DNA from: a virus
Lineage: Duplodnaviria; Heunggongvirae; Uroviricota; Caudoviricetes
DNA: 64,000 bases
Virus record (IMG/VR): IMGVR_UViG_3300010352_001127
Direction: 5' to 3' (one strand)
This document shows positions 7,291 through 36,655 of this stretch, in pieces. The notes below the pieces were generated by a model. That model saw only the letters and a list, made by a program, of their open reading frames with translations. It was not told where the DNA came from and did no database searches. Position 1 is the first letter of the stretch. Each line of letters starts with the position of its first letter. The position numbers were made by a program, and so were the translations under genes.

Positions 7291-7305
7291 TTATATATTA
7301 AAAAA
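7291..7305 (-). promoter_or_regulatory. Promoter-like box TTATATATTAAAAA upstream of 6931..7269
   Basis: Motif family member. Confidence 0.4.
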
Positions 7306-7328
7306 TATATTTTTTTAATTCTATTCTA

Positions 7329-16147: not shown

Positions 16148-16738
16148 TTATCTTTGCATATCAAAGAAAATTTTATATTTAAATATTTCATCGTCAGATA
16201 GAAAAATATCCAGATCCATTGAATTTATAATCATAACGCCGTCTTTAGCCATATCTTCGACGATGGGAGTCATTTGATCGAAAAAACGTGTTGCATCTAC
16301 AATCAAAAAAGTTTTGAAAAATACAGAGCAATCTTTGGCCGTTTCTTTTACATTGAAATCTCCTGGAAGTCCAACTACATAAACTTCTTTTACATCGTTT
16401 TTATCTAAAAAATCATAAAGATTTAAACCATCTTCATTAACTCCAACAAAACCGCTCAAATCTATGGTTTTCTCACCTTTTGTGAAAATAGTAGTTTCTT
16501 TTAAATCTAAATCTGGATGAAAATCTGCGCCTTCAGTATTTTGAATACAATGAGGAGGAATTTCATCAGTGAAAGATTTATGATTGACTGGATGCCAATC
16601 TCTTGATGCTACAGTTAAATCAAATTTATCTTTGATTTCGTTAATTATAGGAATAATTCTATCTCCGAAAGGAACAGGATATGTTCCACCGGGCATAAAA
16701 TCCTTTTGAACATCAACAATAAATAAAGCTCTTTTCAT
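16148..16738 (-). CDS. pncA: PncA-like isochorismatase-family protein (nicotinamidase/pyrazinamidase homolog); the expected nucleophile Cys appears to be replaced by Asn
   Basis: Motifs ALFIVDVQKDFMPGG, DWHPVNH, PPHC, GADFHPDLD, SGFVGVNEDG and VYVVGLPGDFNVKETAKD are co-linear with PncA (…VVGIATDHCVRQTAED…); D and K of the triad and the metal-binding His/Asp residues are conserved. Confidence 0.6.
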   Translation of the reverse strand: MKRALFIVDVQKDFMPGGTYPVPFGDRIIPIINEIKDKFDLTVASRDWHPVNHKSFTDEIPPHCIQNTEGADFHPDLDLKETTIFTKGEKTIDLSGFVGVNEDGLNLYDFLDKNDVKEVYVVGLPGDFNVKETAKDCSVFFKTFLIVDATRFFDQMTPIVEDMAKDGVMIINSMDLDIFLSDDEIFKYKIFFDMQR

Positions 16739-16739
16739 A

Positions 16740-17105
16740 TTATTCTAATCTAATAACACCACTATCAACTTCAAATGTTTTCTTTTCTACCAGAGTGTCT
16801 GGCAAAACAAAAGTTTTTCCATCCTGTAAAACCATAACAGTTCCTTTCTTTGGAAAATGAACAGGATTTTTGCATGTTTCGCTATGGAATAAAAAGGAAT
16901 TAAATGCTGGTTTTAATGAAAGACGTCCATTGGTTTTCAAATAACCCATGTATTCGTGCCCTTCAATTTCATAAACATATAAGGTGATCCCATTCACGAC
17001 AACATGTCTTTTAGCATTCATTTCTTTATCAATATCAACTTTCTGTTTACAACCAGTAAACAGAAAAAGACACATTATTACTAATAATCCTAAAAATTTT
17101 TTCAT
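16740..17105 (-). CDS. Lipoprotein (signal peptide + lipobox LFTGC)
   Basis: MKKFLGLLVIMCLFLFTGCKQK N-terminus. Confidence 0.5.
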   Translation of the reverse strand: MKKFLGLLVIMCLFLFTGCKQKVDIDKEMNAKRHVVVNGITLYVYEIEGHEYMGYLKTNGRLSLKPAFNSFLFHSETCKNPVHFPKKGTVMVLQDGKTFVLPDTLVEKKTFEVDSGVIRLE

Positions 17106-17125
17106 TTTACAAATATATTAATTTT

Positions 17126-18106
17126 TTAATAGTTAAAAAAATTCTTTTTAACTATATCTATAGCTTTTTGTGTTCTTTCTTCCCAATCAGTTCCACTCAC
17201 AACCTCCATTTTTAAATTTTTAGATTTAAAAAAGTTGTATTGGAAATCACCAAGATCATCTCTTTTTTCTTTTGAAAGGCGAGTTCCATCTTGTATATAA
17301 GGGGCATCTTTATCTAAGAAAATGTATAAATCGAATTTGTTTGCTTCTTCAATCCAATTATCGAATACGGGTTCAAGATCGAAGAAAAATTTAGAATAAG
17401 ATTTTGTTGTATTTAAATTTGTGTCGCTAAATAATATCCTATTAGCGTGTTTTATTTCTTCGATTATGCCACTAGCATGAGCTTTTCCAACATTCATGAT
17501 ATCTTTTATAGTTGTATTGTCTGAATGTTCGATTATATCTCTACCCCACTCTTTTACATAAGATGTTTGAAAAACTTTTGACAATTTTTCTGTAAGAACT
17601 GTTTTTCCAGTACTTTCTGTTCCACACAGACATATTTTCTTAACAAAATAAGGTCTTGCTACAAGTGATATATAATCCCAATACTTGAAAGGATTTTCTC
17701 TTATCTGAGTGCCACTTATTGGAACAGTTTCACGTTTTTCGTCAAATATTACATATCCACAATTCATATACTCAGCAACATACTCTGCGTAAGGTTCTGA
17801 AGCAAACACAACATCTACATTATCTAAAGTTTTACTTATGTGATCAGCCCATAGTTTAGATACTTCCCTATCAGAAACAGAAGTATATGGAAGTTTTACA
17901 TCGGTATATCTTATAATAACTTTATAATCATCCCTATATTTATCCGTAAGCCAGTGAAGTCTCACGTAACCTGGTATGGTTTCTTTTTCGTCATTCATAC
18001 ATAAAAGAACATATAAGAGATCACATTTCTCTTTAGCAAAATTTATAAGTGCTTCGTGACCTAAAGAAATTGGTTCTGCTTTTAAAATTATCAGTCCTCT
18101 TATCAT
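17126..18106 (-). CDS. nadR: NadR-type bifunctional NMN adenylyltransferase / ribosylnicotinamide kinase (no HTH domain)
   Basis: Nucleotidyltransferase (H/T)xGH-type motif (GLIILKAEPISLGHEALI) near the N-terminus. Later P-loop LCGTESTGKT (GxESxGKS/T of the NadR RNK domain). 326 aa. Confidence 0.7.
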   Translation of the reverse strand: MIRGLIILKAEPISLGHEALINFAKEKCDLLYVLLCMNDEKETIPGYVRLHWLTDKYRDDYKVIIRYTDVKLPYTSVSDREVSKLWADHISKTLDNVDVVFASEPYAEYVAEYMNCGYVIFDEKRETVPISGTQIRENPFKYWDYISLVARPYFVKKICLCGTESTGKTVLTEKLSKVFQTSYVKEWGRDIIEHSDNTTIKDIMNVGKAHASGIIEEIKHANRILFSDTNLNTTKSYSKFFFDLEPVFDNWIEEANKFDLYIFLDKDAPYIQDGTRLSKEKRDDLGDFQYNFFKSKNLKMEVVSGTDWEERTQKAIDIVKKNFFNY

Positions 18107-18942
18107 TCAAATATTTTTTTTATATTTTTGAAGTTGTTATTTATAATCAGATTATAATCATAATATTTCTTGGATTCATTCATTTTAATTTCATTAATAT
18201 TTCTTTTCTTATTCCACAAATAACTTGATTTTATTTCAAAGACTATGTTTGTATTTTTTATTCTATAGTCTATATAATAATTATGTTCTTTTCCGCTATC
18301 ATCAAAATAACTTATACGAGGTCCTCTTTCAATCAAATCAAATTTACCGATGGATTCAACAAATTTTAAAAATTTTAATTCATAACTGCTTTGATAATCT
18401 ATGCCATTATATTGTTTTATTCTTATTCTTCCCCATCCACTATTAGGTTTTCTTCTCCCTTCTTTAAAAGCTTTAATGGCTGCATCACTCATTCTTTTTT
18501 TAATATCATCAGATAGTTTAGTCCCCTTTCTTTTTTCTGCCATTTTTATCCATCCTTGTTTTTCTTTTATTTTTTGTTTAGAAGATTCCCAAGTAAAAGG
18601 GTTTCCGTTCTCATTCAACCATTTTTTAAGCCCTATTTTAGCATTATTGTTTGGTTTTCCAAAATTTCCGTTTCTATCTCCTTTATTTTGACATTTGGTA
18701 CAAAAATGTTCATTTTTATCTGGTTTTAGATCTCTTATTCTTCTTTCGAATATTACACCACAATCATCACATTTTACTTTTATAAATTTTATTCTATAAT
18801 CTCTTTTTGATTTTAGTAATGACCAATGAACTAAAAAAGGTTCGTTTATATTTGGTCTATAACCGAGTGTTTTTTTCCATCTGTCGGGTTGAGTGTAATG
18901 TGTTAAGACAACTTCAACGTTTTCATATTCTTTTATATACAT
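18103..18942 (-). CDS. Freestanding homing-endonuclease-like protein: N-terminal Zn-ribbon (KVKCDDCG…CTKCQ) + C-terminal PD-(D/E)XK-like domain
   Basis: The N-terminal CxxC…CxxC segment is paralogous to those of 42922..44574 and 46691..47581. C-terminal …IDYRIKNTNIVFEIKSSY… resembles a D…E.K nuclease core. ATGA overlap with nadR. Confidence 0.4.
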   Translation of the reverse strand: MYIKEYENVEVVLTHYTQPDRWKKTLGYRPNINEPFLVHWSLLKSKRDYRIKFIKVKCDDCGVIFERRIRDLKPDKNEHFCTKCQNKGDRNGNFGKPNNNAKIGLKKWLNENGNPFTWESSKQKIKEKQGWIKMAEKRKGTKLSDDIKKRMSDAAIKAFKEGRRKPNSGWGRIRIKQYNGIDYQSSYELKFLKFVESIGKFDLIERGPRISYFDDSGKEHNYYIDYRIKNTNIVFEIKSSYLWNKKRNINEIKMNESKKYYDYNLIINNNFKNIKKIFE

Positions 18943-18956
18943 AAGAACTTTTTATT

Positions 18957-18971
18957 CTTATATATTAAAAA
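18957..18971 (-). promoter_or_regulatory. Promoter-like box CTTATATATTAAAAA upstream of 18103..18942
   Basis: Motif family member, 15 nt upstream of the ATG. Confidence 0.45.
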
Positions 18972-19008
18972 CTAAAAATCACTTTTAACCTTTTCATTGT
19001 GGTCATTT

Positions 19009-19434
19009 TCATTCACTCCAATCTTCTTCACCATACGGATCCAAATCATTAATTATTCTTTTATTGAGTTTATATTCTCTTTTATGTTCTCTCTTTTTTT
19101 CTTTCCATTCACTATAACTTCCACAATGATGATGTCTTATCATATTACATATATCTGGGAAACTTCTAACTACTTTAGTTGGCAAACTATATATATTTAT
19201 ATCTGATGATGCACAATTATCTAATAGATGTAATATATAATCAATAACATAATCTTCATTTTGATCTTTATAATGTTTTAAAAATTTTATAATGTCATCG
19301 ACATTCTTCCAGCTTAACTCGATTTTTTTTAAATCTAATATAGCTTGTGCGGCTTCTTCGCGTGTTAAATCTGTTCGATAACCATATTTATCGAAATCTT
19401 TAAAATCTTCAAATTTAGATAAATTACTTATCAT
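19009..19434 (-). CDS. Hypothetical protein ending in the DPYGEEDW motif
   Basis: C-terminus …NDLDPYGEEDWSE* (motif at 19018-19041). Confidence 0.45.
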   Translation of the reverse strand: MISNLSKFEDFKDFDKYGYRTDLTREEAAQAILDLKKIELSWKNVDDIIKFLKHYKDQNEDYVIDYILHLLDNCASSDINIYSLPTKVVRSFPDICNMIRHHHCGSYSEWKEKKREHKREYKLNKRIINDLDPYGEEDWSE

Positions 19435-19437
19435 ATG

Positions 19438-19758
19438 TCATTTAACTTTTTTAGTTTCATAAATATAACACTCATACCATCTTGAAGATACTCCATATTC
19501 ACATAATACATTTTCAAGAGATTGTTTGGGGAATTTAGTAAAAGATCCTTTTATTTCCAAGAACCAAGAATCTGGCACATATTTTTCTTTTATCCATTCT
19601 CTTGGATCTTTTTCCCATCCATTTAATATATTATACCAACCTTCACTTTTATATTTATTTGTGAGTTCTCCAACGAGAATTTCTTCGCCATTATTATGTT
19701 TAAGAATTATAATATCTTCAATTTCAATTTCGTCAAAACTTACTTTTTTCAATTTCAT
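19438..19758 (-). CDS. Hypothetical protein
   Basis: ORF in an operon context, with 4-nt overlaps on both sides. Confidence 0.4.
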   Translation of the reverse strand: MKLKKVSFDEIEIEDIIILKHNNGEEILVGELTNKYKSEGWYNILNGWEKDPREWIKEKYVPDSWFLEIKGSFTKFPKQSLENVLCEYGVSSRWYECYIYETKKVK

Positions 19759-20324
19759 TGTTGTTTTTTATATATTTTTGTCCAATTAATTAACCCGTAG
19801 ACGGCTACAAAAGTTATCACAATATATTCTAAAGATACTAAATATATTCCTTTTGAATAGAATAACCACACGCTTAACATATCCAATAATATCCATAGAA
19901 ACCATCCATATAAATATTTTTTAGATAGAAATACCACAGCAAATATACTCATTGTTGTGACAATAGCATCTAGTAAAGCAAATTGTGGTTGAAAGAATCC
20001 CAATACATAACCTCCTAATAAACAAAGAATTAGTATAACAATTCCAGTTATTATTACATTTTTTAATGAAGATATTTTTATCTTTTTACCTATATCTCTT
20101 CCCCAATATGTCCAACCGTATATTGAAACAATCGTAAAAAAGACTTGAAGCGCAACTTGTCCAAACAATTGATTTTTTAAAAAAAGTATAAAGAAAAATA
20201 TCTGTCCGATTATACCAACAGGCCAATTCCAAATTTTGTTTCTAGCAGCCAAAACTACTGCAGCAAAAGAAAACAATGTTCCAAATAATTCTAAATAAGA
20301 AAGTGTATATCCTAGTAATACCAT
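19755..20324 (-). CDS. pnuC: PnuC-family nicotinamide riboside transporter
   Basis: 189-aa polytopic membrane protein with Trp-rich TM helices typical of PnuC. Genomic association with nadR and pncA. Confidence 0.6.
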   Translation of the reverse strand: MVLLGYTLSYLELFGTLFSFAAVVLAARNKIWNWPVGIIGQIFFFILFLKNQLFGQVALQVFFTIVSIYGWTYWGRDIGKKIKISSLKNVIITGIVILILCLLGGYVLGFFQPQFALLDAIVTTMSIFAVVFLSKKYLYGWFLWILLDMLSVWLFYSKGIYLVSLEYIVITFVAVYGLINWTKIYKKQQ

Positions 20325-20779
20325 TATTTATTTATCTTAATATACTTACCAATAATAGCTGATTTATCCAACACATGTCCATCAATTTCTTTCAAAAGTT
20401 CGGCTTTAGTATATCCTTCTTTGTTCAAAAAACAATCTAAAGCAAATATCTTAAAGAAATATCTATGAACACCATTTGGAGGGCATGGACCTTTATAATC
20501 AAATTGTTTATAGTCATTTTTTCCAAATAAAATTGGTGGTTGTGAATCTCCTTTTGTAAAGTGTTCATTAAACATAGTTGTAGTTGGTGGAATATTATAT
20601 ACAATCCAATGTACCCAATCTCCAACTGGAGCGTCGGGATCATCAACTAATAAAGCTAGACTAACAGTCGCTTTTGGAAAACCACTCCATTCTAGCTGAG
20701 GTGATACATTTACTCCCTCGCAAGTAAATTTGGAAGGAATAAATTCACCATGTCTAAACGCGTTACTTCTTATTTCCAT
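20324..20779 (-). CDS. PEBP-family protein (YbhB/YbcL-like)
   Basis: LVDDPDAP…W.HW and GPCPP.G.HRY motifs of bacterial phosphatidylethanolamine-binding proteins. Confidence 0.7.
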   Translation of the reverse strand: MEIRSNAFRHGEFIPSKFTCEGVNVSPQLEWSGFPKATVSLALLVDDPDAPVGDWVHWIVYNIPPTTTMFNEHFTKGDSQPPILFGKNDYKQFDYKGPCPPNGVHRYFFKIFALDCFLNKEGYTKAELLKEIDGHVLDKSAIIGKYIKINK

Positions 20780-22847
20780 CTTTTTCTTTTAACATTATTT
20801 TTAATTGAGCAAAACAATTAAATGGTACTCCTACAAAATAAAGTGGTTGATCTCCACTCCAATTTAATTGACCGCTCGCGAAATATTTTTGATTTGTTAT
20901 ATTATTAAAATAGATATTAAAATCTATCCAGTTCCAACTAACACCCAATTTTCCATTTAAAGTGTAATAAGAATCAATAGTTTCGGCTAAATCCGTCCCC
21001 AACCATTTTGTATATCCGATGATACTTCCATCTTGATATCTACAAGATAAACCTACTACAAACCATTTATATTTATAATGACCTTCTATGTTACCTATCC
21101 ATTTTGGAGATAATATTGGTTTATTTATTTGATTATTAGATTGTTTTATACCACAATCATTATACGAACCATTTACACCAATTCCTAAACCAAAATCCCA
21201 TTTGTATTTGAAATCTGCTTCAATTCCTCTTCTATAACTCTGTTTTACGTTATCGTGTAATGGAACTCCACTCATACCTATTTTACCATTTAAAACAATT
21301 TCATTACTAAAATTCATATGGAAAAAATTGAAATTTATATAAAAATTTTTTTCTACTACACGAATACCAAGTTCATTATCTCGCGATTGTTCGGAATTAA
21401 GATTGTTATAAACAGCGTTACCAAGAGTATCACATGGTAAGTAGTTATACCCATTTAATACATCATTTCTTGATGGTTCACGATTATTTACACCATAACT
21501 ATAATAAAACACAGTTCTATTTAAATTGTAATCTATTCCTAAATCATAATTTATAAAATTCCAATGTAAATCTGGCATAACAACATTATAATGAGGAGTA
21601 AAGTTCTCATCATAAGAAACATCGCCTTTATATTTAAAATCTGTATATCTATATTGAACATCGCCAAAAAGATTCAGATCTTTCCAAACATTATATTTAA
21701 CTTTCAAATAACTACTTATTTCATTTCTATATCCAGTGTTTGTGTATTGATATCCATAAATATCATTATTCCCTATATGTTCTCTATCATATGTAAAACC
21801 GTGAGTTCCTAAATCGAAATAAAATCCTTTTATATTTTTTGAAAAATTTAAATATCCACCATACCAATTAGATTTAAAAGTATATTTGTCTATACCATAA
21901 TTAATATTATTCTGTAAGAAATTCTGTAAATCAAAAGTATAATAGCCGTGAAGATAATTATAATAAAGAGCATAATTCAATTTCGTTTCTTTATTGAAAT
22001 TTATTATGTGGTGAAATTGAACGTGTGTCTGAGCAAAATTATCTTGTTCTTTGTCTGTCGCACCGTTTGTTTTCCTATCTTCTCGAACTTTTTCCAACGG
22101 AACGCCCAACCACGCTAACTGATTATTTTGGGCTCCTATAAAAGATACTATTTTGAATGTATGTTTTTTTACATTAAAATATGAATTTAAAAATAAACTC
22201 TGTCCTTTATTACTGGAATGATATTTATATCCTTTTGTTTCTATATCTGATAATTGAAAGTAATAACCGCCACGTTTAAAATTTTGATCGACCTCTGCTC
22301 CAATATTAAAACTATTGAAAGATCCGTATCCAAATTTAGCCGTCGCTTTATCATAAGTAGGGAAATGGGAATCAAAATTTAAACCACCTCCAAAACAAGA
22401 TGATCCATTTTTTGTTAAACTATTACCTCTTTGTATTTGAATCAAATCTAATGAATTAAAGAAATCTGGATAGTTTGAAAAATACAATCCTTGATCTTCG
22501 GGCTCATTCATTGGCACTCCGTTTAGAGTGAAATTAATACGAGTTTGATCAATTCCTCTCATACGAATATAAGAATATCCATAGGGGCTACCAGCATCAG
22601 AATAAGATGTGATAGAGGGTGTTGTAATAAGAATATCAGAAGGCTCTTGCCCGTGATATTTAAAATTTATTTCGTTCTTATTTAAATTTGTAAAAGTAAT
22701 AGGAGTAAGATGATTCGCCTTGTATGGCGCTGTAATATTAACCTCTTTTAATTCTATCGTGTCCTTACCAATATGATAAATAGTGTCTTGACTATAACCC
22801 CCGATAGCGAAGATAAATAGAATAATAATAAATAATGTTCTTTTCAT
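20763..22847 (-). CDS. TonB-dependent outer-membrane receptor (signal peptide, plug, ~22-strand barrel; 694 aa)
   Basis: N-terminal signal peptide plus TonB-box/plug region (LKEVNITA…, SYIRMRGIDQTRINFTLNGVPMNEPEDQGLYFSNYPDF). Long Tyr/Asn/Gly-rich beta-barrel body. Overlaps the PEBP gene by 17 nt (operon). Confidence 0.65.
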   Translation of the reverse strand: MKRTLFIIILFIFAIGGYSQDTIYHIGKDTIELKEVNITAPYKANHLTPITFTNLNKNEINFKYHGQEPSDILITTPSITSYSDAGSPYGYSYIRMRGIDQTRINFTLNGVPMNEPEDQGLYFSNYPDFFNSLDLIQIQRGNSLTKNGSSCFGGGLNFDSHFPTYDKATAKFGYGSFNSFNIGAEVDQNFKRGGYYFQLSDIETKGYKYHSSNKGQSLFLNSYFNVKKHTFKIVSFIGAQNNQLAWLGVPLEKVREDRKTNGATDKEQDNFAQTHVQFHHIINFNKETKLNYALYYNYLHGYYTFDLQNFLQNNINYGIDKYTFKSNWYGGYLNFSKNIKGFYFDLGTHGFTYDREHIGNNDIYGYQYTNTGYRNEISSYLKVKYNVWKDLNLFGDVQYRYTDFKYKGDVSYDENFTPHYNVVMPDLHWNFINYDLGIDYNLNRTVFYYSYGVNNREPSRNDVLNGYNYLPCDTLGNAVYNNLNSEQSRDNELGIRVVEKNFYINFNFFHMNFSNEIVLNGKIGMSGVPLHDNVKQSYRRGIEADFKYKWDFGLGIGVNGSYNDCGIKQSNNQINKPILSPKWIGNIEGHYKYKWFVVGLSCRYQDGSIIGYTKWLGTDLAETIDSYYTLNGKLGVSWNWIDFNIYFNNITNQKYFASGQLNWSGDQPLYFVGVPFNCFAQLKIMLKEKDGNKK

Positions 22848-23362
22848 TTGTGATATTTTTCGTTAAATTTAAAACTCCATTCTGGATTTGGCCTGTATTT
22901 AGTGTTTAGAAAATATTTATATACATATTTCCAATCCTTTTTTGGATTAAATCCAGCCTTGTCTTCCCAAAGAGAATTGAAATATGGTTTTTTGTCATAA
23001 AATCCAAAACTTCCTTTAGCGTCAGAAATTTCTGGATTATCATTCACGTACTTAAAATATATACCATCTTCTTCGAATTGTTTCATATACTTTTCAATCT
23101 CGTTTTTATAAGAAGATGTGAATATAAACAATATCATATCACGGCGGTTCTTTGTAAGATATTGTAAAGTTTCTTTGGCATAAGGATAGTAATTTATTCT
23201 AAATTCACCTTCACCTTTTTCAGATTTACGATAATCTGGCTCGGATATAACTCCATGAATATCAAAGCAATGATAGGTTTCATACCACTGCCTTTCTTTG
23301 GCGTGTTTAAACATTTTATCCATCCAAACAAGTAAAGATGGTTTATAGCAAGGATTTAGCAT
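22844..23362 (-). CDS. Hypothetical protein, possibly HAD-like 5'(3')-deoxyribonucleotidase-like with an altered motif I (FDIHGVI instead of DxDG)
   Basis: Weak resemblance only. First gene of the TonB-receptor operon; TATATA box at about 23374-23388. Confidence 0.3.
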   Translation of the reverse strand: MLNPCYKPSLLVWMDKMFKHAKERQWYETYHCFDIHGVISEPDYRKSEKGEGEFRINYYPYAKETLQYLTKNRRDMILFIFTSSYKNEIEKYMKQFEEDGIYFKYVNDNPEISDAKGSFGFYDKKPYFNSLWEDKAGFNPKKDWKYVYKYFLNTKYRPNPEWSFKFNEKYHK

Positions 23363-23802: not shown

Positions 23803-25257
23803 TTAAGCTGCAGGCGTAGCTGGTGCTGGAGGTTGATCTTCTTTAAATCCGTAAGTCACCTCAGTCTTCGTTTTACCAGGAGTTTTACCTGGCACTTTCT
23901 TAGAATCTATAGCATATAAAAGATCTATGTCATAGTAATCCTCACCAACTTTACCTATAGTTTTATTTAACTCAAATCTGTGTGTGACATCAGGAGGTGT
24001 TCGTTTATTCTTATCGTGATAAACATCAACAGCATATTTTTTCCAAATCCATGTATTTAAAGGTTTTGAGAAAACCGAATCTTCTTTAGCATACCATTTC
24101 TTTGTATATTCACACCAAACGATGTGTGGGGATCGTGGGAAAGCATATTCATTATTGTAAGAAAGTCTTATCACGTCTTCTGTGGCACAATAAGCATTAT
24201 CATACCTACACCAAGTAGCTCTACTTTCGGGAATATCTTCATCGTTATAACCATCGTGAACAATTGGATCATAATCATCGTCGTCTCTCCATTGTTCATA
24301 ATGCCCTTCGGTGTCAGTTAAAGTATAATATTCTCCCTCAAGATCATCGACACTCGATAGTTTCTTTTGTTCATGATAAAAATATCTTAAAGTATCCACA
24401 TAAGGAAATAAATCAAAGTTCGTATTTTCTAAAATAACTTCCATCTCAATATCCTGAGATCCTTTACCAGGAACAATTATATAAGTTCCACCATATTTTT
24501 GTTCGTCTTTACAATACCATCCTTCACGTTTAGCATAATTGGTGAATAATATTTCATCTTCGTCTTTATTAGTATAAACTCTATCCATAAAAATAGCTCC
24601 TTCCGGTTTTGATAATTTCCAAACTAACGCTCTTCCTCTAATCTTATTACCATCGCTATTTTTAAGTATGAACAATTTACATTGTTTTGGATTGTTTCTA
24701 TAGATGTTTAAAAATCTTCCACAATCCTCGTGTGACATACAAGAAGCTCCCATAGTACCGCGTAGACTATCATAATTTCTTGCATCATACCAATAAACAA
24801 TGTTGTCTCCATCAACCAATTCAAAATTACCAGATTCTTCAGTTTCTTTTACTATGGTTTTAAACTTCTTCACGAACTTTTGGACAGAATCCTCACTAAA
24901 TTTTGGAAGATTTTGAATGATGAATCTTCCAATTTTTTGAGTAGTTCTCATTTTAGAAGTCCAAAATTCTTCCTTGGGCTTACCTTCTTTTTTGAGTCTT
25001 TCTATTCTAGAAGATTGTAAAAAAGAAACACTCTCACCGTCATCTTCTACATCAACGTAAGAGAAATCAAAGAGACGATCGACTTCTTCGAGTTCTAAAA
25101 TACGTTTTGATATATTACTTTGTTTTATGTTCTGAATAGAAATTAAAACATCTTTAAATCTATCAGATAATATCATTTTTTGATCGGGCTGCTTTACTTT
25201 TTTCTCTCCTTTTTCGGCAGCTTCTTTCAAATAATCAAAATATTTATTAATACTCAT
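23803..25257 (-). CDS. Family-X paralog A (unknown function; conserved R…SC(M/A)…NPD…GRA..W…FMDRVY…YPYVDTL core) with C-terminal aromatic WCxYD repeats
   Basis: Core aligns with 27098.., 28342.., 29344.., 40330.. and 41404... C-terminal repeats TWCRYDNAYCATEDVIRL / VWCEYTKKWYAKEDSVFS / TWIWKKYAVDVY. Confidence 0.55.
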   Translation of the reverse strand: MSINKYFDYLKEAAEKGEKKVKQPDQKMILSDRFKDVLISIQNIKQSNISKRILELEEVDRLFDFSYVDVEDDGESVSFLQSSRIERLKKEGKPKEEFWTSKMRTTQKIGRFIIQNLPKFSEDSVQKFVKKFKTIVKETEESGNFELVDGDNIVYWYDARNYDSLRGTMGASCMSHEDCGRFLNIYRNNPKQCKLFILKNSDGNKIRGRALVWKLSKPEGAIFMDRVYTNKDEDEILFTNYAKREGWYCKDEQKYGGTYIIVPGKGSQDIEMEVILENTNFDLFPYVDTLRYFYHEQKKLSSVDDLEGEYYTLTDTEGHYEQWRDDDDYDPIVHDGYNDEDIPESRATWCRYDNAYCATEDVIRLSYNNEYAFPRSPHIVWCEYTKKWYAKEDSVFSKPLNTWIWKKYAVDVYHDKNKRTPPDVTHRFELNKTIGKVGEDYYDIDLLYAIDSKKVPGKTPGKTKTEVTYGFKEDQPPAPATPAA

Positions 25258-25276
25258 TTTCTATACAAAATATTTT

Positions 25277-26773
25277 TTAGAATTTCATGTCACCGACATC
25301 AACTCTTATGTCTTTTTCTCCTTTATTCTTAAATGAAATTTTAATGATCAGTTTGTCTGGTCGAATTCCAATAATTTTTCCTTCACCAAAAATGGGGTGG
25401 AAAATTACTAATCCTTCTTTCAAATCTTTTTCTGTGAGTTTCCTACTACCACCGGATTCAGATTTTTTCTTAAAATCGTACTTTGAGAATTTATCTGGTG
25501 GAAGAATGAATTTGCTATTCATAGTGGTTGTTATAATCACTTTTGGATGAGGTCCTTCATTATCCACTTCTGTTATTGTTCCAAAAAGTTCACCTGTTTT
25601 ACTATAAATTTCCATATCCTTTTTGGCTTCATCGAAAGTAACAGGACTCATTCCCTTACTATCAACAACTTCTTCTCTCTTAACTTTCGTAGGATCAAAA
25701 TCTGGTGTTGTGTAGAATCCTACGTAATCAACCCAAATAGCGTCTTTCTTTAGACACCATTGTTTGTCGTGTTCGCACCATTGAGCATCGGCCACCTTAA
25801 CGGTATTTCCGAGATAGTCTTTGACCTCTGTTTGACCCGGTGCTAATTGTCCTGGTCCTGTTGTTGTAGATCTTGCGGATGTAGTTTGTCCGTAACCTCC
25901 GCCTTCCCACCAACGATCATCACGTTCCCAATCTGAATAATATTTACCACGACGTGAGTAAGAATATTGATGCTCAACTTTAGTTGGATCTCTTTTCACT
26001 GGAAGAGTTTCCCAATCTACTTTACAACAAGCTTCTGCTAACTTTTCCAAAAAAACTATATTTTGTTTTTCGCGAACTGAGTGTTGATCATCATAACCAA
26101 CACTAAGATTTGTACACTCGGGGAATTTTTCAGCAACTTGATGTGAATCTGTTACAGCTCCTGTTGGATCTTGTTTATATTTAAATCCACCAGCTTCATT
26201 TAACCTTTTAGCTAATTCATCTGCAAATTCAGCCGAACAACATCTTTCACCCATTTGGAAAGTAATAACACTATCATAATCTCTACGGTCTAATGAAATT
26301 ACTTTATTTATTTTTTTATATAATTCGTCATCTTTATTGCTACCCAAATATGTATTTAGAGCTCTAGATCCAACGCAACCATGTTCTTCACCATGAAAGA
26401 AATAATAAAGACCTTGAATACCTTTCCCTATCATATATATCATAATAGTAGCGCCAGCTTTATCGTCCGCACCAAGTAGGGTTTTTCCGTCTGTTTCGAT
26501 GTAATCTCCTTTGATGACATGCTTAACTTCTTTTGGTTGTCCGCTGTCTGCTGTATCCATATGGCAAGCAAACATAACGGTAGGATCTCCAATTTTGAAA
26601 TAATAATTTCCATTGGCATCCTTTTTCCACCCGCTAGGCAAATAAGGTTCTATCAACTTTTCGTTGCCTCCTGGCATTGTGGTACTTGTTAATTTTAAAA
26701 ATAGGTCTTTGATTGTGGACATTTTATTTATGCTTATTTTTTTATCTTCTTTATTTTCAACAAAATCTTTCAT
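25277..26773 (-). CDS. M20/M28-type co-catalytic zinc metallopeptidase-like protein with a C-terminal aromatic WCxHD module shared with family X
   Basis: HMDTA…DGKTLLGADDKAG…HGEEHG…DSH…DDQH pattern (the H, D, EE, D, H ligand set of M20/M28 peptidases). Paralog of 30891..32039. C-terminal AQWCEHDKQWCLKKDAIWVDY resembles the repeats in 23803... Confidence 0.5.
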   Translation of the reverse strand: MKDFVENKEDKKISINKMSTIKDLFLKLTSTTMPGGNEKLIEPYLPSGWKKDANGNYYFKIGDPTVMFACHMDTADSGQPKEVKHVIKGDYIETDGKTLLGADDKAGATIMIYMIGKGIQGLYYFFHGEEHGCVGSRALNTYLGSNKDDELYKKINKVISLDRRDYDSVITFQMGERCCSAEFADELAKRLNEAGGFKYKQDPTGAVTDSHQVAEKFPECTNLSVGYDDQHSVREKQNIVFLEKLAEACCKVDWETLPVKRDPTKVEHQYSYSRRGKYYSDWERDDRWWEGGGYGQTTSARSTTTGPGQLAPGQTEVKDYLGNTVKVADAQWCEHDKQWCLKKDAIWVDYVGFYTTPDFDPTKVKREEVVDSKGMSPVTFDEAKKDMEIYSKTGELFGTITEVDNEGPHPKVIITTTMNSKFILPPDKFSKYDFKKKSESGGSRKLTEKDLKEGLVIFHPIFGEGKIIGIRPDKLIIKISFKNKGEKDIRVDVGDMKF

Positions 26774-27090: not shown

Positions 27091-27104
27091 CTATATATTA
27101 AAAA
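27091..27104 (-). promoter_or_regulatory. Promoter-like box CTATATATTAAAAA upstream of 26838..27068 (overlaps the stop codon of the 27098 gene)
   Basis: Motif family member. Confidence 0.45.
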
Positions 27105-28303
27105 TTTTTTTTGAGTATGTACTCACCAGTTTCTTCGTCTTTCATCATATCGTCTTTCAAATATATTTTTGAACCCAATCTGACAAATTCGTGTTCGGGT
27201 GTTACATAATCATCTCTATATTTTAATGGAACAGCATCATTTTTGTGTACATAGACATTATCATATTCCGACCAAATCAGAAAATCACGATAAACCATTC
27301 TACCCAAATAATCTATTCCGAAATTATAATTACTATCTACTAGTGGTTCTCCGTTAGCCATAACCAAAGCTAACCAACCAGTTTTATTAAATTTTTCAAC
27401 GTCACTTGTAAGAATCGCTTCTTCTGGATTATAAAATTGTAAAGTATCTACATATGGATAATGTTCGTGATTAATTTTATTCAGATTTACTGTCATTATA
27501 ATTTTTTCTTCTTTCCCTTTATTCACAACTGGAATAACACTTCCTCCATACATTTGTTTACTTTTATAAATATAATCATTTCTTATTGCATAATCTATAA
27601 AAAGTTTAATTTGCCAATCATAAGTGGTGTATATCCTATCCATAAAAATTCTTCCAGCCGGCTCATCCAGATACCATAAATTGGCTCTTCCGTATATCTT
27701 ATCTTCATTTGGATCTTTCAGTATTAACATTTTCATTTTATCGGGATTCTTCTCGTATAAAGAAAAGAATATTTTAGAATCATCATATCTCATACAAGAT
27801 CTCTGTAGTTGACCCGTGGCTTCCCCACTATACATTCTCCCACTATAATATTTAATAATTTCTTTTCCTTCAATTACAGAAAAATTTTCTACCTCACCTT
27901 TTAAAGCTACTTTATAATTCTTTATAAATTCTTCTATTTGCTGTTGAGTGAATTTATTTCCAAAAATTCTAGTTATAAACCTAGACAATCTCTGTTTTTG
28001 ACGATAATGCACCCAGCAATAATTTATACCTTCTTGATCTTTTCCTATAGATTTATATTTATCTAATATTTGTTTTGCTTTATTTGATGCTGTATAAGAA
28101 ACAAAATCATCCTTTTCTTCTTCCACATCCACAAAAGAAATATCATATTTTTTATTATCATATTGAATATTCATTAGTTCATCTAGAATGGGATCTTCTG
28201 GCATATCGGCCAAAACTTCCTTAAAAGTGTGAGAAAAAATCATGGGTAGATTATTCTCATCTTTCGATTCATTCAAAAATGATTTAAAACCGTATAATAT
28301 CAT
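27098..28303 (-). CDS. Family-X paralog B; start revised to ATG 28303 (the ORF-track start at 28315 is TTG)
   Basis: RSCMRYDD…KNPDKMKMLILK…GRANLWYLDEPAGRIFMDRIYT…YPYVDTLQFY; promoter-like box 28329-28340. Confidence 0.55.
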   Translation of the reverse strand: MILYGFKSFLNESKDENNLPMIFSHTFKEVLADMPEDPILDELMNIQYDNKKYDISFVDVEEEKDDFVSYTASNKAKQILDKYKSIGKDQEGINYCWVHYRQKQRLSRFITRIFGNKFTQQQIEEFIKNYKVALKGEVENFSVIEGKEIIKYYSGRMYSGEATGQLQRSCMRYDDSKIFFSLYEKNPDKMKMLILKDPNEDKIYGRANLWYLDEPAGRIFMDRIYTTYDWQIKLFIDYAIRNDYIYKSKQMYGGSVIPVVNKGKEEKIIMTVNLNKINHEHYPYVDTLQFYNPEEAILTSDVEKFNKTGWLALVMANGEPLVDSNYNFGIDYLGRMVYRDFLIWSEYDNVYVHKNDAVPLKYRDDYVTPEHEFVRLGSKIYLKDDMMKDEETGEYILKKNF

Positions 28304-28341
28304 TAATAAAATCAATTATTTTCTGTTTCTATATATAAAAT

Positions 28342-29298
28342 TTAAAATTCAAAATCACTTCTTAATTCATAACTGCCTGTATGATCACAAAGATCGTAAA
28401 ATTGTTTACATCCTATGCTTTTTAAGAATCTCGGATCGTTTGTCAAACTGCCACTTTTTGGATCATAGAAACCTAGATTGTCAACAAAAGGATAAAATTC
28501 ATAATCTTTTGGGTTTATTTTTACAACCATAGTTTCTTTGATAATTTTATTATTAGATACAACTTGCAATACGTTATCCATACTCTCGAGTTTATACAGC
28601 CAATTATTTTTTATTGCGAAATTTATAAACATATTTAGTATGAAGTCATCAGAGAAATATACTCTATCCATGAATGTTTTGTCGGGTCGATCCAAATTCC
28701 ATAATAAAGCTCTACCAAGAATTTTCTGTTTATCATCATCCAATAAAATTAATAATTTGATTTTATCTGGATTTTCTGCGTAGATATTTAAAAAAGCTTG
28801 ACAAAATCTATATCTCATACAAGAATTTTTGAGATTTCCACCACCAACAGCATAATTTTCTTGACGATACCAATTCTTTATTTCATCTCCGATTACAGTT
28901 TTAAAATTTCTGTTTAAATGTTTTGCTTTTATAATAGATTTATATTTATTTATAAAATTCTCTATTTCTTGCGGTTGAACTTTATCACCAACCAATCTAA
29001 CAATCAATCTTCCGATTCTTATTTCAATTCTTTGGGGATTGGACCAGCATTCTGATTCAATATCAGTCACTTTATCTTCTATCATTTTATTTACTTTATC
29101 GCCAGTGATAAAAGTGACAGTATCTTCTTTTTCTGTTCTATCTATGAATGTTTCTTTTGATAAAAATCTTTGAGTCGCCAATTTAAATAGTTCTCTTGAT
29201 ACATTATCGTCTATTCTATTTAAAATTTTAGAAATTCTCTTAGACAAAACGAGTGGAAACAAGTCTGGATTTGAGATGTTGTACTTATCAAAGTTCAT
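28342..29298 (-). CDS. Family-X paralog C (shortest; lacks the C-terminal aromatic module)
   Basis: NSCMRYRF…ENPDKIKLLILL…GRALLWNLDRPDKTFMDRVYF…YPFVDNLGFY. Confidence 0.55.
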   Translation of the reverse strand: MNFDKYNISNPDLFPLVLSKRISKILNRIDDNVSRELFKLATQRFLSKETFIDRTEKEDTVTFITGDKVNKMIEDKVTDIESECWSNPQRIEIRIGRLIVRLVGDKVQPQEIENFINKYKSIIKAKHLNRNFKTVIGDEIKNWYRQENYAVGGGNLKNSCMRYRFCQAFLNIYAENPDKIKLLILLDDDKQKILGRALLWNLDRPDKTFMDRVYFSDDFILNMFINFAIKNNWLYKLESMDNVLQVVSNNKIIKETMVVKINPKDYEFYPFVDNLGFYDPKSGSLTNDPRFLKSIGCKQFYDLCDHTGSYELRSDFEF

Positions 29299-29343: not shown

Positions 29344-30762
29344 TTATATTGACTTTCTTTTTTTCTTTTTTTCTTTATTACTTCCCATCATTTCTCTTAC
29401 GAAGCTATTCTTTTTTATCAGTTCTTCTAACGCTTTTTTGTCATTGTTATTGATTTCAATTATTTTATTTTCATCATATTCATCTTTAAAATAGTATTCA
29501 TCATCGATTCCTTTTATTAGAAGATCCATTATATAAAATTTACCATCAACATATTCATATTCTTTATTTATATCGTTTCTTAAAAGATAATCAAAGGTTT
29601 TCCTATCCTTGTCAAAATAAACTCTATACACATCGCCTTCCATCATAAAAGAACCAATCTTTTTAGAATAAACACTAGATTGTGAGGTTAGAAACCTTTT
29701 ATGATGAGTAGAATATCTTAATTCTGATGGATAAGAATATTCGTCAAATTCTTTTATAAAGAAAGCGTTGTTTTTATGCGTATAACCATCACCATAATAA
29801 CAGAATATAGAATCTTCTATGTTGATAAATTCTTTATTTAAAACATCGTAAACAAAATTTTCGTTTCCAGAATCCGCTCCGTTTGTTTCACGAAGCTTTA
29901 CAATATTAGAAATCTCTTCATATTCCTTATCTATATTTGTTAGATATTTTTCTTTCGCGTTATAATAAAATAAAGTATCCATATAAGGAAAGTATTTAAA
30001 ATCTCCCTTAACATGAACTTTCATATCAATATTGATTTCAAAACCATCTTTTACGACTTTTACGGCATCAAATGTCTGGGCTGCTTTATACAACCATCCT
30101 TGTTTTTCAGCGTGTTTCTTGAAAAGAATAGCGTCAGAATCTTCCTTAACGTATATTCTATCTAAAAGCCAAGTATCACTTGGTTCGTCTAATTTCCAAA
30201 GAATGGCTCTTCCACCAATAAGATCTCTACTTTCCTGAAGAATTAACATTTTTATTTTATCTGGATTCTTTGTATATAAATCCATATATTGCTCACATTG
30301 ATCGTAACGCATGCAAGACTTATTCAGTGAACCATTGCCTCTTGAATATCTTTTACCGTTATAGTATTTTGCAATTTCACAGCCTTCAACAATCTTAAAT
30401 TTAATATTTTTTAAAGCATTCTTATATTCAGCTTTAAATGAATTTACCCATCTTTCAATTTCTGATGGTGTATAAAAAGGAGCAATTTTGTTTATTAATC
30501 TACCAACTCGAATTTCGTTTCTAGAACCGCACGACCATACCATATCACCGTTTCCTCTCACTTGAGGAATTTCTTGGTATTTATTAGCTTGAATAAAAGA
30601 TACTGTAGATTCATCATCCGTTATATCGAAAAAAGAATACTGGAAAGCGTAGTCTTGATTGTTCTCCATAGAAAGAATGAAAATAGATATATTGTCATTG
30701 ATTCTCGTGAGAATATCTCTAAATCTTGATGATAAAATTACTGGTAAATATACATTTTCCAT
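29344..30762 (-). CDS. Family-X paralog D
   Basis: KSCMRYDQ…KNPDKIKMLILQ…GRAILWKLDEP…LDRIYV…FPYMDTLFYY; C-terminal Tyr/Asp-rich extension with a degenerate aromatic repeat. Confidence 0.55.
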   Translation of the reverse strand: MENVYLPVILSSRFRDILTRINDNISIFILSMENNQDYAFQYSFFDITDDESTVSFIQANKYQEIPQVRGNGDMVWSCGSRNEIRVGRLINKIAPFYTPSEIERWVNSFKAEYKNALKNIKFKIVEGCEIAKYYNGKRYSRGNGSLNKSCMRYDQCEQYMDLYTKNPDKIKMLILQESRDLIGGRAILWKLDEPSDTWLLDRIYVKEDSDAILFKKHAEKQGWLYKAAQTFDAVKVVKDGFEINIDMKVHVKGDFKYFPYMDTLFYYNAKEKYLTNIDKEYEEISNIVKLRETNGADSGNENFVYDVLNKEFINIEDSIFCYYGDGYTHKNNAFFIKEFDEYSYPSELRYSTHHKRFLTSQSSVYSKKIGSFMMEGDVYRVYFDKDRKTFDYLLRNDINKEYEYVDGKFYIMDLLIKGIDDEYYFKDEYDENKIIEINNNDKKALEELIKKNSFVREMMGSNKEKKKKRKSI

Positions 30763-30890: not shown

Positions 30891-32039
30891 ATGGACATTA
30901 GAGCGAAGTTTTTAGAATTGACATCAAAAACATATCCTATGGGGAAAGAAAAGGAAGTATATAAATTTTTACCAGACGATTTTATTAAGGACCCATTTGA
31001 TAATTTATATTGGATAATAGGACATCCAGACACTTTATTCTGTGCTCATCTTGATACTGTCGGCGAGTCATCTGAAGTTGTACATGTTTTTGATGGAAAT
31101 GTGGTCAAAACAAATGGGAAAACCGTTCTTGGAGCAGATGATAAAGCGGGAGTTGTTATTATGCTAAATATGATAGAAAAAAACATCCCTGGTTTTTATT
31201 TATTCACTGTGGGCGAAGAAAAGGGGTGTCAAGGTTCGGCTAAATTATCTCAAAAATTACAGACAAAAGGAGACGATAAATTCAAAGGTATCAAAAAAAT
31301 AATAGCCTTCGATAGAAGTGGATATAGTAGTATTATTACACACCAAATGGAACAAAGATGTTGTAGTGATGAATTTGCAAATGCCTTAATTAGAGAATTT
31401 GGAAAAGTAGGTCTCCAATACACATTAGACACGGGTGGTGTATATTGTGATTCTGCTGAGTTTGCGGATCTAATTCCCGAATGCACTAATATTTCTGTTG
31501 GTTATTTCGATCAACACAACGTAGTGGAAAAACAAGACATGGCTTTTTTGGAAAGGTTATCAGATGCTTGTTGTAAAGTAGATTGGAAATCATTACCAGT
31601 AAAAAGAGATCCTAAAAAAGTAGAATATATTGATAGTTATTATACTAGTAGAAAGAAAAGAACTATTGTAGGTGAAGATGAATCCGAATTTGATGATTAT
31701 GATTTTCATCCAATGGCAGTTGAAGATAATAAAGATGTGGAAGTTTTCTATTTCGAAGATAAAAGATATAATTATATATCTGATATATCTTATCTAAATG
31801 GTGAAATTGTAGATATTACTTTAAGTCAAAAACGCATTGAGCATGAATTAGAGGCAATAACAAAATATATAGAAGATAGTGGAATAATATATGATTTCGC
31901 TGTTTGGGATGGACTCATTTTGGTCGTCGAACACGACAAACACGAAACAAAAATATCAAGAAACGATCTCATCAAATACGTACCAATTCTCGATATAGAA
32001 TTTATCAAGAAAGAGGTAAGACCAATTAGAAAATTTTAA
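30891..32039 (+). CDS. M20/M28-type metallopeptidase-like protein (short paralog of 25277..26773)
   Basis: AHLDTV…NGKTVLGADDKAG…TVGEEKGCQGS…YCDSAEF…FDQHN…CCKVDWKSLPVKRDPKKVE, co-linear with 25277... Confidence 0.5.
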   Translation: MDIRAKFLELTSKTYPMGKEKEVYKFLPDDFIKDPFDNLYWIIGHPDTLFCAHLDTVGESSEVVHVFDGNVVKTNGKTVLGADDKAGVVIMLNMIEKNIPGFYLFTVGEEKGCQGSAKLSQKLQTKGDDKFKGIKKIIAFDRSGYSSIITHQMEQRCCSDEFANALIREFGKVGLQYTLDTGGVYCDSAEFADLIPECTNISVGYFDQHNVVEKQDMAFLERLSDACCKVDWKSLPVKRDPKKVEYIDSYYTSRKKRTIVGEDESEFDDYDFHPMAVEDNKDVEVFYFEDKRYNYISDISYLNGEIVDITLSQKRIEHELEAITKYIEDSGIIYDFAVWDGLILVVEHDKHETKISRNDLIKYVPILDIEFIKKEVRPIRKF

Positions 32040-36653: not shown

Positions 36654-36655
36654 TA

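Follow-up and report, generated by a model that had tools for sequence, protein, structure and literature searches.

A β-hairpin module is homologous between PepL, a long metallopeptidase, and three members (A, B and D) of a second protein family, family X, all encoded in the 64,000-nucleotide viral DNA analysed here (hereafter the window; IMG/VR record IMGVR_UViG_3300010352_001127). The resemblance is well above chance. As predicted from AlphaFold2 models, the shared element is an autonomous, mobile domain of about 47 aa made of three consecutive 15-aa β-hairpins. It appears to be previously undescribed: its definition adds a compact domain family that matches no known family, being absent from Pfam-A and having no relative among PDB sequences, and it connects two big sets of 'hypothetical' megaphage genes.

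The hairpin module and its homology

The features of the cluster are collected in Table 1. High-confidence β-hairpins are predicted in the AlphaFold2 models of both PepL and A. In PepL, the strand pairs 316-319/324-326, 330-333/338-341 and 346-348/353-355 have pLDDT values of about 92-94; the model of A has a mean pLDDT of 91.2. According to DSSP on these models, each hairpin is built in the order strand, 4-residue turn, strand and short 3-10 turn, and corresponds to the consensus h-[WY]-[CSD]-[ED]-Y-x-x-x-h-x-x-[DE]-D-A-h. The 15-aa periodicity was read from the DSSP strings together with an alignment by eye. The module is acidic and rich in aromatic residues (net charge about -9 per 50 aa). 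Nearly all sequences keep three residues, Cys in WC, Ala in DA and Pro in xP, and other W, Y and D positions are also commonly kept. These columns look mostly structural, which would fit a scaffold with a diversifying surface.

Table 1. Features of the peptidase/family-X cluster, with window coordinates
Feature	Coordinates	Strand	Basis
A, family-X member, 484 aa, immediately downstream of PepL	23803..25257	-	ORF list; homologues; AlphaFold2
A head, aa 25-313: N-terminal α/β region, then GNAT-like core	24319..25185	-	
A module copy 1, aa 331-378, three hairpins IVHDGYNDEDIPESR / ATWCRYDNAYCATED / VIRLSYNNEYAFPRSPH	24124..24267	-	peptidase-only HMM; hhalign; DSSP
A partial second copy, aa 379-408, hairpins IVWCEYTKKWYAKED / SVFSKPLNTWIWKKY	24034..24123	-	peptidase-only HMM; hhalign; DSSP
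A distal β tail, aa 409-471, further longer hairpins	23845..24033	-	A-orthologue alignment; DSSP
PepL, long metallopeptidase paralogue, 498 aa	25277..26773	-	ORF list; PF04389; phrog_4191
PepL catalytic domain, aa 39-286, by sequence a clan MH (M20/M28/M42, PepT-like) co-catalytic metallopeptidase	25916..26659	-	metal ligands; PDB profile
PepL hairpin module, aa 316-362, three β-hairpins EVKDYLGNTVKVADA / QWCEHDKQWCLKKDA / IWVDYVGFYTTPDF	25688..25828	-	homologues; AlphaFold2; HMM
PepL small all-β middle domain, aa ~375-437, SH3/PRC-barrel-like	25463..25651	-	
PepL C-terminal UvrD/PcrA-type Tudor domain, aa ~452-498	25280..25420	-	
B module, aa 333-377, within family-X gene 27098-28315	27185..27319	-	peptidase-only HMM; A-orthologue-only HMM; Smith-Waterman
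C, family-X member, head alone, without module	28342..29298	-	X-head HMM E 7.2e-90; module HMMs negative
D module, aa 303-349, divergent, within family-X gene 29344-30762	29716..29856	-	A-orthologue-only HMM; blastp A tail vs D tail
PepS, short peptidase paralogue, without module or Tudor tail	30891..32039	+	phrog_4191; peptidase-head HMM E 2.3e-106; module and tail HMMs negative

The preliminary description of this region had recognised the element as a unit of about 18 aa. The conserved unit is instead the three-hairpin module. All six peptides then quoted are present, with coordinates shifted by 1-3 nt except for the third peptide of A. The PepL peptide AQWCEHDKQWCLKKDAIWVDYVGFY corresponds to aa 330-354 (25712-25786, formerly 25711-25789), and those of B and D to aa 347-366 (27218-27277) and aa 319-339 (29746-29808), respectively. 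Two of the A peptides, aa 348-365 (24163-24216) and aa 380-397 (24067-24120), agree with the range 24066-24219 first given for A; the remaining one, aa 402-413 (24019-24054), falls outside it. Two to three copies had been proposed in A. The first is retained, the second is weak (hhalign probability 40.7%, E 2.9e-4), and a third, TWIWKKYAVDVY, is apparent only through the structural periodicity of the AlphaFold2 model. The distal tail of A is conserved among A orthologues, and its sequence is not recognisable as module.

Smith-Waterman comparisons of PepL aa 306-370 with the tails of A and B gave z=6.5 and z=10.0, respectively, with 0/2000 shuffles scoring as high in either case. The value for the D tail was not significant (z=1.8), and no signal above background came from the heads, C or PepS. 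A HMM built from peptidase homologues alone scored 21.3 bits on A copy 1, 11.2 bits on A copy 2, 20.0 bits on B and up to 36.7 bits on family-X orthologues, versus a best score of 8.8 bits among 3,519 shuffled or reversed decoys; D received only 6.5 bits. With a HMM built from A orthologues alone, PepL (25.2 bits), B (25.0 bits) and D (23.2 bits) were recovered, the decoy maximum being 7.0, which bears out the degenerate copies already suspected in B and D. Moreover, blastp relates the D tail to the A tail with an E value of 6e-12 across 122 aa, and hhalign aligns the peptidase module with X copy 1 over 41 columns (probability 97.9%, E 4.9e-13).

The idea that the tails resemble each other only by chance, or through a common W/Y/D-rich composition, therefore deserves practically no credit. 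It could draw on the PepL-D comparison taken alone and on the profile self-alignment of the A tail, in which the search for internal repeats reached only E 0.19. However, the independent HMMs, at 20-37 bits versus decoy maxima of 7-9, and the hhalign E value for copy 1 contradict it, and matches of the whole-database profile are almost all X, peptidase or mosaic phage proteins. A recent gene conversion between A and PepL was also considered and rejected, since their modules are just ~29% identical and the peptidase module is kept down to ~40% overall identity.

A search of all window ORFs with the module HMMs gave no carrier beyond PepL, A, B and D; PepS, as previously noted, and C are without it. 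In hmmscan against Pfam-A (2025 copy; E<=10), no family matched the module in the tails of PepL, A, B and D or in four distant X proteins, it being understood that HMMER filters may lose very weak matches. Neither the module nor family X was matched in NCBIfam, PADLOC or PDB sequence-profile searches. All matches listed in fold searches with two models carried Tudor, SH3-like or GNAT descriptions, which left the module without one, and a literature search on the linker motif DPYGEEDW found no paper.

Carrier proteins and their distribution

PepL is organised as a catalytic head, the hairpin module, a small β domain and a Tudor tail. PF04389 scores 25.1 bits on PepL and 24.8 bits on PepS (both over the gathering cutoff of 21.3), and phrog_4191 matches them with E values of 1.4e-61 and 1.1e-64, respectively. 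A PDB profile search with the PepL head found peptidase T (3gb0_A, E 3.8e-16). Residues H71, D73, D103/D104, E129/E130, D162 and H231 of PepL are invariant across 121 aligned homologues, PepS among them. Presumably, each of them plays the role known for its counterpart in clan MH (H-x-D, D, E-E, D/E, H; co-catalytic metals and catalytic Glu). Membership in the PepT tripeptidase equivalog (TIGR01883 / NF003976) was rejected, with 52.2 bits vs a curated cutoff of 274, so that the enzyme is a relative of PepT and no orthologue.

Of the 60 peptidase homologues closest to PepL, 59 keep the hairpin module. Within the long-peptidase clade it is always accompanied by the Tudor tail; the short forms are without the module. 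In the model of PepL, this tail adopts a Tudor fold superimposable on the C-terminal domain of UvrD/PcrA. At the profile level, PepL matches UvrD weakly in the PDB (E 0.011-0.08). The corresponding family, PF21196, is precomputed on the PepL homologues P0051 and P0060 and reaches E 7e-4, below cutoff, on P0192; it is not reported for PepL itself by Pfam hmmscan (E<=10 included).

Family X comprises four clear and two distant paralogues in the window, and gives 14 tblastn matches within one 735-kb phage record. A Pfam domain is found in 0/66 homologues of A. Modelling weakly suggests a GNAT-like fold for the family-X head. Pfam, NCBIfam, PHROG and PDB profile searches of this head gave no match to a GNAT family. 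Moreover, the canonical GNAT R/Q-x-x-G-x-G/A loop for the CoA pyrophosphate is not evident: as judged from sequence and DSSP, the segment that follows the predicted β4, FMDRVYTNKDEDEILF, has no G-x-G/A. The heads of the two families are unrelated in fold, as had been proposed, one being a clan-MH (M28/PepT-like) metallopeptidase and the other weakly GNAT-like.

A profile search of 1.84 billion representatives (clusters at 50% identity, E<=1e-3) returned 187 representative clusters of module carriers. Of 145 additional matches listed, 102 combine an X head with 1-4 module copies and a single one contains a peptidase head; the other 42 are fragments or mosaic phage proteins in which neither head is present. 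Family X is the main carrier, with its 1-4 copies placed after the GNAT-like head. In the complete mosaic carriers (P0195, P0191, P0204, P0208, P0187 and P0192), the module is N-terminal, internal or C-terminal; P0195 and P0192 are encoded on phage contigs, and all examined carriers are phage or phage-like metagenomic proteins. Because the module occupies such different sites in proteins that have neither head, the domain shuffling envisaged in the preliminary description is genuine and reaches past the X and peptidase families. The module is accessory, because C, other X paralogues in loci L001 and L003, and the short peptidases do without it.

The gene order in the window is D, C, B, PepL, A, with PepS beside D on the opposite strand. 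Locus L001 has the order X, long peptidase, X, and locus L003 a short peptidase followed by X, X, X, long peptidase, X, X. The long peptidase and a module-bearing X protein are thus encoded side by side in three divergent loci. Moreover, 22 A orthologues share the size of their longest contig with long-peptidase orthologues. In the cultured Cellulophaga phage phi38:1, gp038 (peptidase) adjoins gp037 (X). Hence conservation of the peptidase-X gene pair extends from megaphage-like contigs to phi38:1. In this distant phage, the pair lies between early gp036 and middle gp039, outside the late structural genes (PMC5335546), its timing being deduced from these neighbour genes only. The region had no Megablast match in the phage collection, relatives being found at the protein level only. 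In the window, the cluster is neighboured by NAD-salvage and nucleotide-metabolism genes; no structural genes flank it and no lysis-gene setting was seen. The N-termini of A, PepL and D, judged by eye, have no hydrophobic signal sequence.

Possible roles of the module

The occurrence of the long peptidase and module-bearing X proteins side by side in divergent phages leads us to infer that this undescribed mobile domain acts as a protein-protein docking adaptor for both, a proposal to which we give about an even chance. A narrow clade of clan-MH exopeptidases would have gained one module copy between the catalytic domain and a pair formed by the SH3-like domain and the UvrD-type Tudor domain. 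By binding a partner, the module would then take the peptidase to the intracellular partner or assembly of the X proteins; alternatively, it may tether the peptidase and the X proteins to each other. Docking would take place in the early-to-middle phase of infection. An intracellular setting is supported by three observations: PepL has a UvrD-type Tudor domain, no signal peptide is visible by eye, and the phi38:1 pair is flanked by an early and a middle gene. If it is a docking domain, the module would be a handle on a host component met by early/middle phage enzymes, and the Tudor tail of PepL points to RNA polymerase as a candidate for this component. Nucleic-acid binding by the module was considered unlikely given its strong net negative charge. 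With gp038 and gp037 of phi38:1 available in culture, genetics and biochemistry can address what the pair and the module do.

Several other roles have to be weighed. The module could be a self-association element, the hairpin stacks pairing with each other so that PepL and the X paralogues homo- or hetero-oligomerise with no external target. Hairpin arrays in tandem whose copy number varies are a usual feature of stacking repeats, and the module-bearing proteins are adjacent in the three divergent loci. Nevertheless, this appears rather unlikely: mosaics on other phage contigs contain just one module, neither an X gene nor a peptidase gene having been called in their vicinity, and the strong acidity disfavours module-module contacts unless cations bridge them. 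It may be noted that self-association overlaps the tethering branch of the docking proposal. A metal-binding or redox mini-domain formed around the WC...WC cysteines is improbable to a further degree. Taking all carriers together, at least 90% of sequences keep the first Cys, and both are invariant within the peptidase clade, so that metal or redox chemistry could count as a hint against docking; the many acidic residues could also hold cations. However, there are just two cysteines; family X often has I, V or Y in place of the second, B has Ser at the first position, and neither a conserved His nor another Cys pair is present to complete a site.

The preliminary description had named the cell wall and the capsid, besides partner docking, as possible targets. 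Phages are known to inject host-takeover enzymes, T4 Alt being packaged in the capsid, and by analogy the module could load PepL and X proteins into the virion for injection with the DNA; moreover, the mosaic carrier P0195 is encoded ~3 kb from a Gp23-type capsid gene. Polyvalent proteins, in this connection, are treated in PMC7824862. Known capsid-targeting peptides are terminal, unlike the module with its variable position and copy number, and the cluster of the window has no flanking structural genes. Since, in addition, the phi38:1 pair is located between early and middle genes and not among late ones (PMC5335546), virion targeting is disfavoured and must be held improbable. Even less can be said for a cell-wall or carbohydrate-binding repeat anchoring the enzymes to the envelope, which we consider very improbable. 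The organisation does recall CW_binding-type repeats, with short aromatic β-hairpins in tandem, in variable copies and on different enzymes. However, Pfam hmmscan at E<=10 reports neither CW_binding nor another repeat family on any tail, no leader is visible by eye, PepL also contains the UvrD-type Tudor domain, an intracellular adaptor, and the genes around the cluster belong to NAD salvage and nucleotide metabolism, not to lysis.

Returning to docking, a more specific and clearly unlikely version can be formulated. The cluster would be a host-takeover system that docks on a host hub, RNA polymerase being the most plausible one. It would combine a PepT-like exopeptidase, ending in a UvrD-type Tudor domain that would bind RNA polymerase, with several GNAT-like X paralogues. 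Through the module, as their shared docking element, the modifying (X) and trimming (peptidase) activities would be joined on one target.

Comparison with known systems

Choline-binding repeats have a ~20-aa period and a Gly/aromatic consensus, and occur in secreted or surface proteins. Like the module, the repeats of CW_binding_1 (PF01473) are tandem short aromatic β-hairpins, present in variable copies on unrelated catalytic domains. In contrast, the module has a period of 15 aa, is acidic, does not show the choline-binding consensus as generally known, and has carriers with no visible signal peptide. MORN and YD/RHS repeats are also tandem β-hairpins with conserved aromatic residues and Asp, including a 'YD'-like motif. 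Their periods (~23 aa for MORN, ~20 aa or more for YD) and consensus sequences are different, YD repeats build large shells and not 47-aa modules, and Pfam at E<=10 reports neither family on the module tails. Small all-β adaptors of the Tudor, SH3-like and WW types, including the UvrD/PcrA domain PF21196, have a five-strand barrel where the module is a three-hairpin meander repeat, and no sequence or listed structural match relates the module to these families.

For the peptidases, the relationship is closer. The heads of PepL and PepS have in common with peptidase T and the M20-M28-M42 enzymes of clan MH the H-x-D, D, E-E, D, H metal-ligand pattern, and match PF04389 and PepT-like models. What PepL has besides its head (hairpin module, SH3-like domain, Tudor tail) is lacking in the cellular clan MH enzymes.

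For the cluster as a whole, a speculative analogy can be drawn with the Rac GNAT system, in which a GNAT-fold phage protein and proteolysis jointly hit a host hub protein. UvrD uses a Tudor domain of the PepL type for RNA polymerase binding. In sequence, family X resembles neither Rac nor any GNAT family, and the canonical CoA-binding loop is not evident. If the host-takeover reading were true, the cluster would parallel, in modular form and with several paralogues, the route that leads from the Rac GNAT protein to cleavage of the RNA polymerase α-subunit.

Homology and architecture of the shared module

A C-terminal similarity between the long metallopeptidase PepL and family X, whose members carry a head with a weak, tentative likeness to the GNAT fold, was proposed in the preliminary description. 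It exceeds shuffled controls in pairwise and HMM comparisons and is significant in profile-profile comparison. With window sequences only, PepL aa 306-370 scores z=6.5 against the tail of protein A and z=10.0 against that of protein B, values equalled in 0 of 2000 shuffles; the D tail, the heads, protein C and the short peptidase PepS give background only. An HMM trained solely on the module segment of 59 peptidase homologues, and independent of family X, gives 20-37 bits on family-X proteins (in the window, 21.3 for A copy 1 and 20.0 for B; A copy 2 reaches 11.2). Its top decoy among 3,519 shuffled or reversed sequences reaches 8.8 bits, and no further ORF of the window is matched. With an HMM built from A orthologues only, PepL, B and D score 25.2, 25.0 and 23.2 bits (decoy maximum 7.0). 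When the profiles of the peptidase module and of X copy 1 are aligned, the probability is 97.9% (E 4.9e-13, 41 columns); the second copy of A is weaker (hhalign 40.7%, E 2.9e-4). These scores lie over shuffles and decoys, contrary to the outcome that would have refuted the initial proposal, and the similarity is therefore homology. All peptides initially quoted are present, at coordinates 1-3 nt off; the third of protein A lies just outside the range assigned to it and has no sequence-level support.

The module, of about 47 aa, is very well conserved in all but one of the 60 closest peptidase homologues (consensus v-t-D-Y-l-G-n-x-i-k-x-x-D-A-v-W-C-E-Y-D-K-x-W-C-l-K-x-e-A-I-W-V-D-y-i-G-F-Y-T-t-P-D) and absent from the short peptidases (P0061-P0120). 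In a representative set it bears a net charge of about -9 per 50 aa and is 19% aromatic. Confident AlphaFold2 models (mean pLDDT 91.2 for full-length A, 89.3 for PepL aa 296-498) show a series of short beta-hairpins with a period of 15 residues, each predicted unit comprising a strand, a 4-residue turn, a strand and a 3-10 turn at 'x-D-A'. Three hairpins are modelled in PepL (EVKDYLGNTVKVADA, QWCEHDKQWCLKKDA and IWVDYVGFYTTPDF), and five canonical ones in A (aa 332-408), followed by longer ones to aa 471. Because of this period, the 18-aa unit first described is to be replaced by a 15-aa hairpin, the triple hairpin being the unit of homology. The periodicity is plain in distant X proteins, for example VEYYGEYMNEDDLV, YCELGDEYRTSEDAV and YLDYYGEYATEEYVD.

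Genomic setting and carriers

The window (G+C about 30%) seems to derive from a phage with a very large genome. Megablast against the phage collection gave no match; tblastn with protein A found there a best match of 73.6% identity in LR756501 and LR756503 ('uncultured phage', 735 kb each, 14 matching places each) and weaker matches in Cellulophaga phages. D, C, B, PepL and A form one run of genes, and PepS adjoins D.

Coordinates of the module cluster and of other features of the window
Feature	Position	Strand	Length
A	23803-25257	minus	484 aa
PepL	25277-26773	minus	498 aa
B	27098-28315	minus	405 aa
C	28342-29298	minus	318 aa
D	29344-30762	minus	472 aa
PepS	30891-32039	plus	382 aa
Collagen-like ORF	7329-16070	minus	2,913 aa
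Auxiliary gene set	16148-23362	minus	
Auxiliary gene set	35793-37597	minus	
Distant X relative	40330-41385	minus	351 aa
Distant X relative	41404-42432	minus	342 aa
DP[YF][GS]EE[DEK]W ORF	48449-49489	minus	
DP[YF][GS]EE[DEK]W ORF	19009-19434	minus	
DP[YF][GS]EE[DEK]W ORF	61398-61733	minus	
DP[YF][GS]EE[DEK]W ORF	45345-45788	minus	
[KR]W[WY]xxGKLE (C-terminus)	35453-35803	minus	
[KR]W[WY]xxGKLE, stop-to-stop ORF (upstream of called ATG of 45345-45788)	45348-45845	minus	

The genes around the cluster are accessory or metabolic, not structural. They include a DNA ligase, an HNH endonuclease and, from an auxiliary set that also holds a PEBP-family protein, isochorismatase/nicotinamidase-like and NadR-like (cytidylyltransferase and AAA_28) proteins, a PnuC NMN transporter, PPK2, PRPP synthase and a full TonB-dependent receptor (plug and barrel). 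Taken together, the auxiliary genes point to NAD salvage; phages uncommonly carry a gene for an outer-membrane receptor. The collagen-like ORF consists almost wholly of G-[ST]-[ST] triplets between globular ends (33% Gly, 27% Ser, 22% Thr), and this ORF accounts for the rise in G+C to about 50% from the 30% background. It may encode a fibre or 'hair' protein.

The PepL and PepS heads pass the PF04389 gathering threshold and match phrog_4191 (E about 1e-61 and 1e-64, respectively); among solved structures, peptidase T (3gb0_A, E 3.8e-16) is the closest in sequence. Across 121 homologues, H71, D73, D103/D104, E129/E130, D162 and H231 never vary. On these sequence grounds both are clan-MH metallopeptidases and probably active enzymes; orthology with PepT was rejected. 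In PepL, the module is followed by a small domain, all beta, that weakly matches the PRC barrel, and then by a Tudor domain of the UvrD/PcrA type, which takes up the final ~47 residues (sequence-profile match to UvrD marginal, E 0.011-0.08).

X paralogues flank the long peptidase in two divergent contigs. L001 (peptidase 48% identical to PepL) has an X without module, the long peptidase and an X with module; in L003 (40%), a short peptidase encoded on the opposite strand is followed by two X, an X with module, the long peptidase, an X and an X with module. For 22 A orthologues, the longest contig equals in length that of long-peptidase orthologues. The cultured Cellulophaga phage phi38:1 (NC_021796, 72 kb) carries a peptidase-X pair at 5534-7963, with gp038 ('peptidase'; head HMM E 6e-13, no module) directly upstream of gp037 (X head, E 2.6e-52). 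The gp037 tail appears by eye as a divergent acidic hairpin repeat and scores only 9.3 bits with the A-orthologue HMM. In this phage, expression classes track gene order, gp036 being early and gp039 middle (PMC5335546); thus, from its position between them, the pair very probably belongs to the early or middle class and not to the late or structural genes. It provides an experimental system for the peptidase-X family.

Distribution and mobility

To survey carriers, 1.84 billion representative proteins were searched with a profile (alignment A2) made from 70 modules; 187 were retrieved at E<=1e-3, including 38 at E<=1e-10. Of the matches listed, the 145 that the homologue sets described above lacked were classified with local HMMs: 102 have a family-X head and one to four module copies, a single one has both head and tail of the peptidase, and the remaining 42 lack either head (two of them with a Tudor-like tail). 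Many headless carriers are fragments, and several are complete: P0195 (793 aa, module internal), P0204 (390 aa, module at aa 13-59), P0208, P0191, P0187 (two modules) and P0192, in which two Tudor-like domains precede the module. No Pfam domain was found in 20 scanned headless carriers except a weak PF21196 in P0192. The P0192 contig is phage-like, and that of P0195 (114 kb) holds, besides a family-B DNA polymerase, a capsid gene of the Gp23 type. In large phages the module is therefore a portable domain that extends beyond the two families, and its varied architectures and positions bear out the domain shuffling envisaged initially. No other group of carriers is nearly as broad as family X, whereas the module-bearing peptidase clade is narrow and uniform, which suggests that the peptidase was the recipient.

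Two further tandem ORFs (E 2.8e-7 and 2.6e-14) resemble the family-X head over its N-terminal two-thirds, with SCAN and GRR replacing SCM and GRA; they seem to represent a distant subfamily of X that lacks the hairpin module.

Short linker-like motifs were also observed. The acidic-aromatic DP[YF][GS]EE[DEK]W (e.g., LDPYGEEDW) has five occurrences in the window, spread over four ORFs that are otherwise unrelated and often placed at the very C-terminal end or close to the N-terminus, and links domains in mosaics P0187, P0191, P0195, P0196, P0197, P0208 and P0209. It could serve for docking or mark a processing site; in a literature search, no paper contained the string DPYGEEDW. The second, [KR]W[WY]xxGKLE (VKWYNKGKLE, IRWWNKGKLEE), recurs in mosaic carriers P0192, P0195 and P0204. 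These phages seem to assemble small proteins from mini-domains and stereotyped linkers.

Possible function and relation to known families

The results above show the homology of the module, its predicted hairpin architecture, its presence at varied positions in varied architectures, the conserved linkage of its carriers and its co-occurrence with other small adaptor domains. A binding role is plausible and, like the identity of the partner, is our inference. Our preferred reading, to which we give about even weight, is that the module may be a docking adaptor: it would fold on its own and, during host takeover, would bring the peptidase and X proteins to the same intracellular partner or to one another. 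A bolder reading, in which the cluster targets host RNA polymerase, is improbable. Of the targets first suggested for the module, the cell wall is unlikely, given the apparent absence of signal peptides and, in PepL, a UvrD-type Tudor as partner domain; a capsid role or virion targeting is likewise unlikely. Less probably than docking, modules could associate with each other, or have a metal-binding or redox role via the conserved Cys. Nucleic-acid binding was also considered, and the strong acidity speaks against it. Docking by the module stands as a proposal on function; as a lead, the module is solid and tractable, both in annotating domains and in studying the biology of the conserved peptidase/X module in large phages.

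In organisation, the module most resembles cell-wall-binding/choline-binding repeats and also MORN, YD and other hairpin repeats; in use, it resembles the small adaptors Tudor, SH3 and WW. It differs from all of these in period, charge and cellular context, and Pfam searches failed to place its sequence in any of them. The most apt description is that of a new family of domains whose general kind, the portable beta-repeat adaptors, is known.
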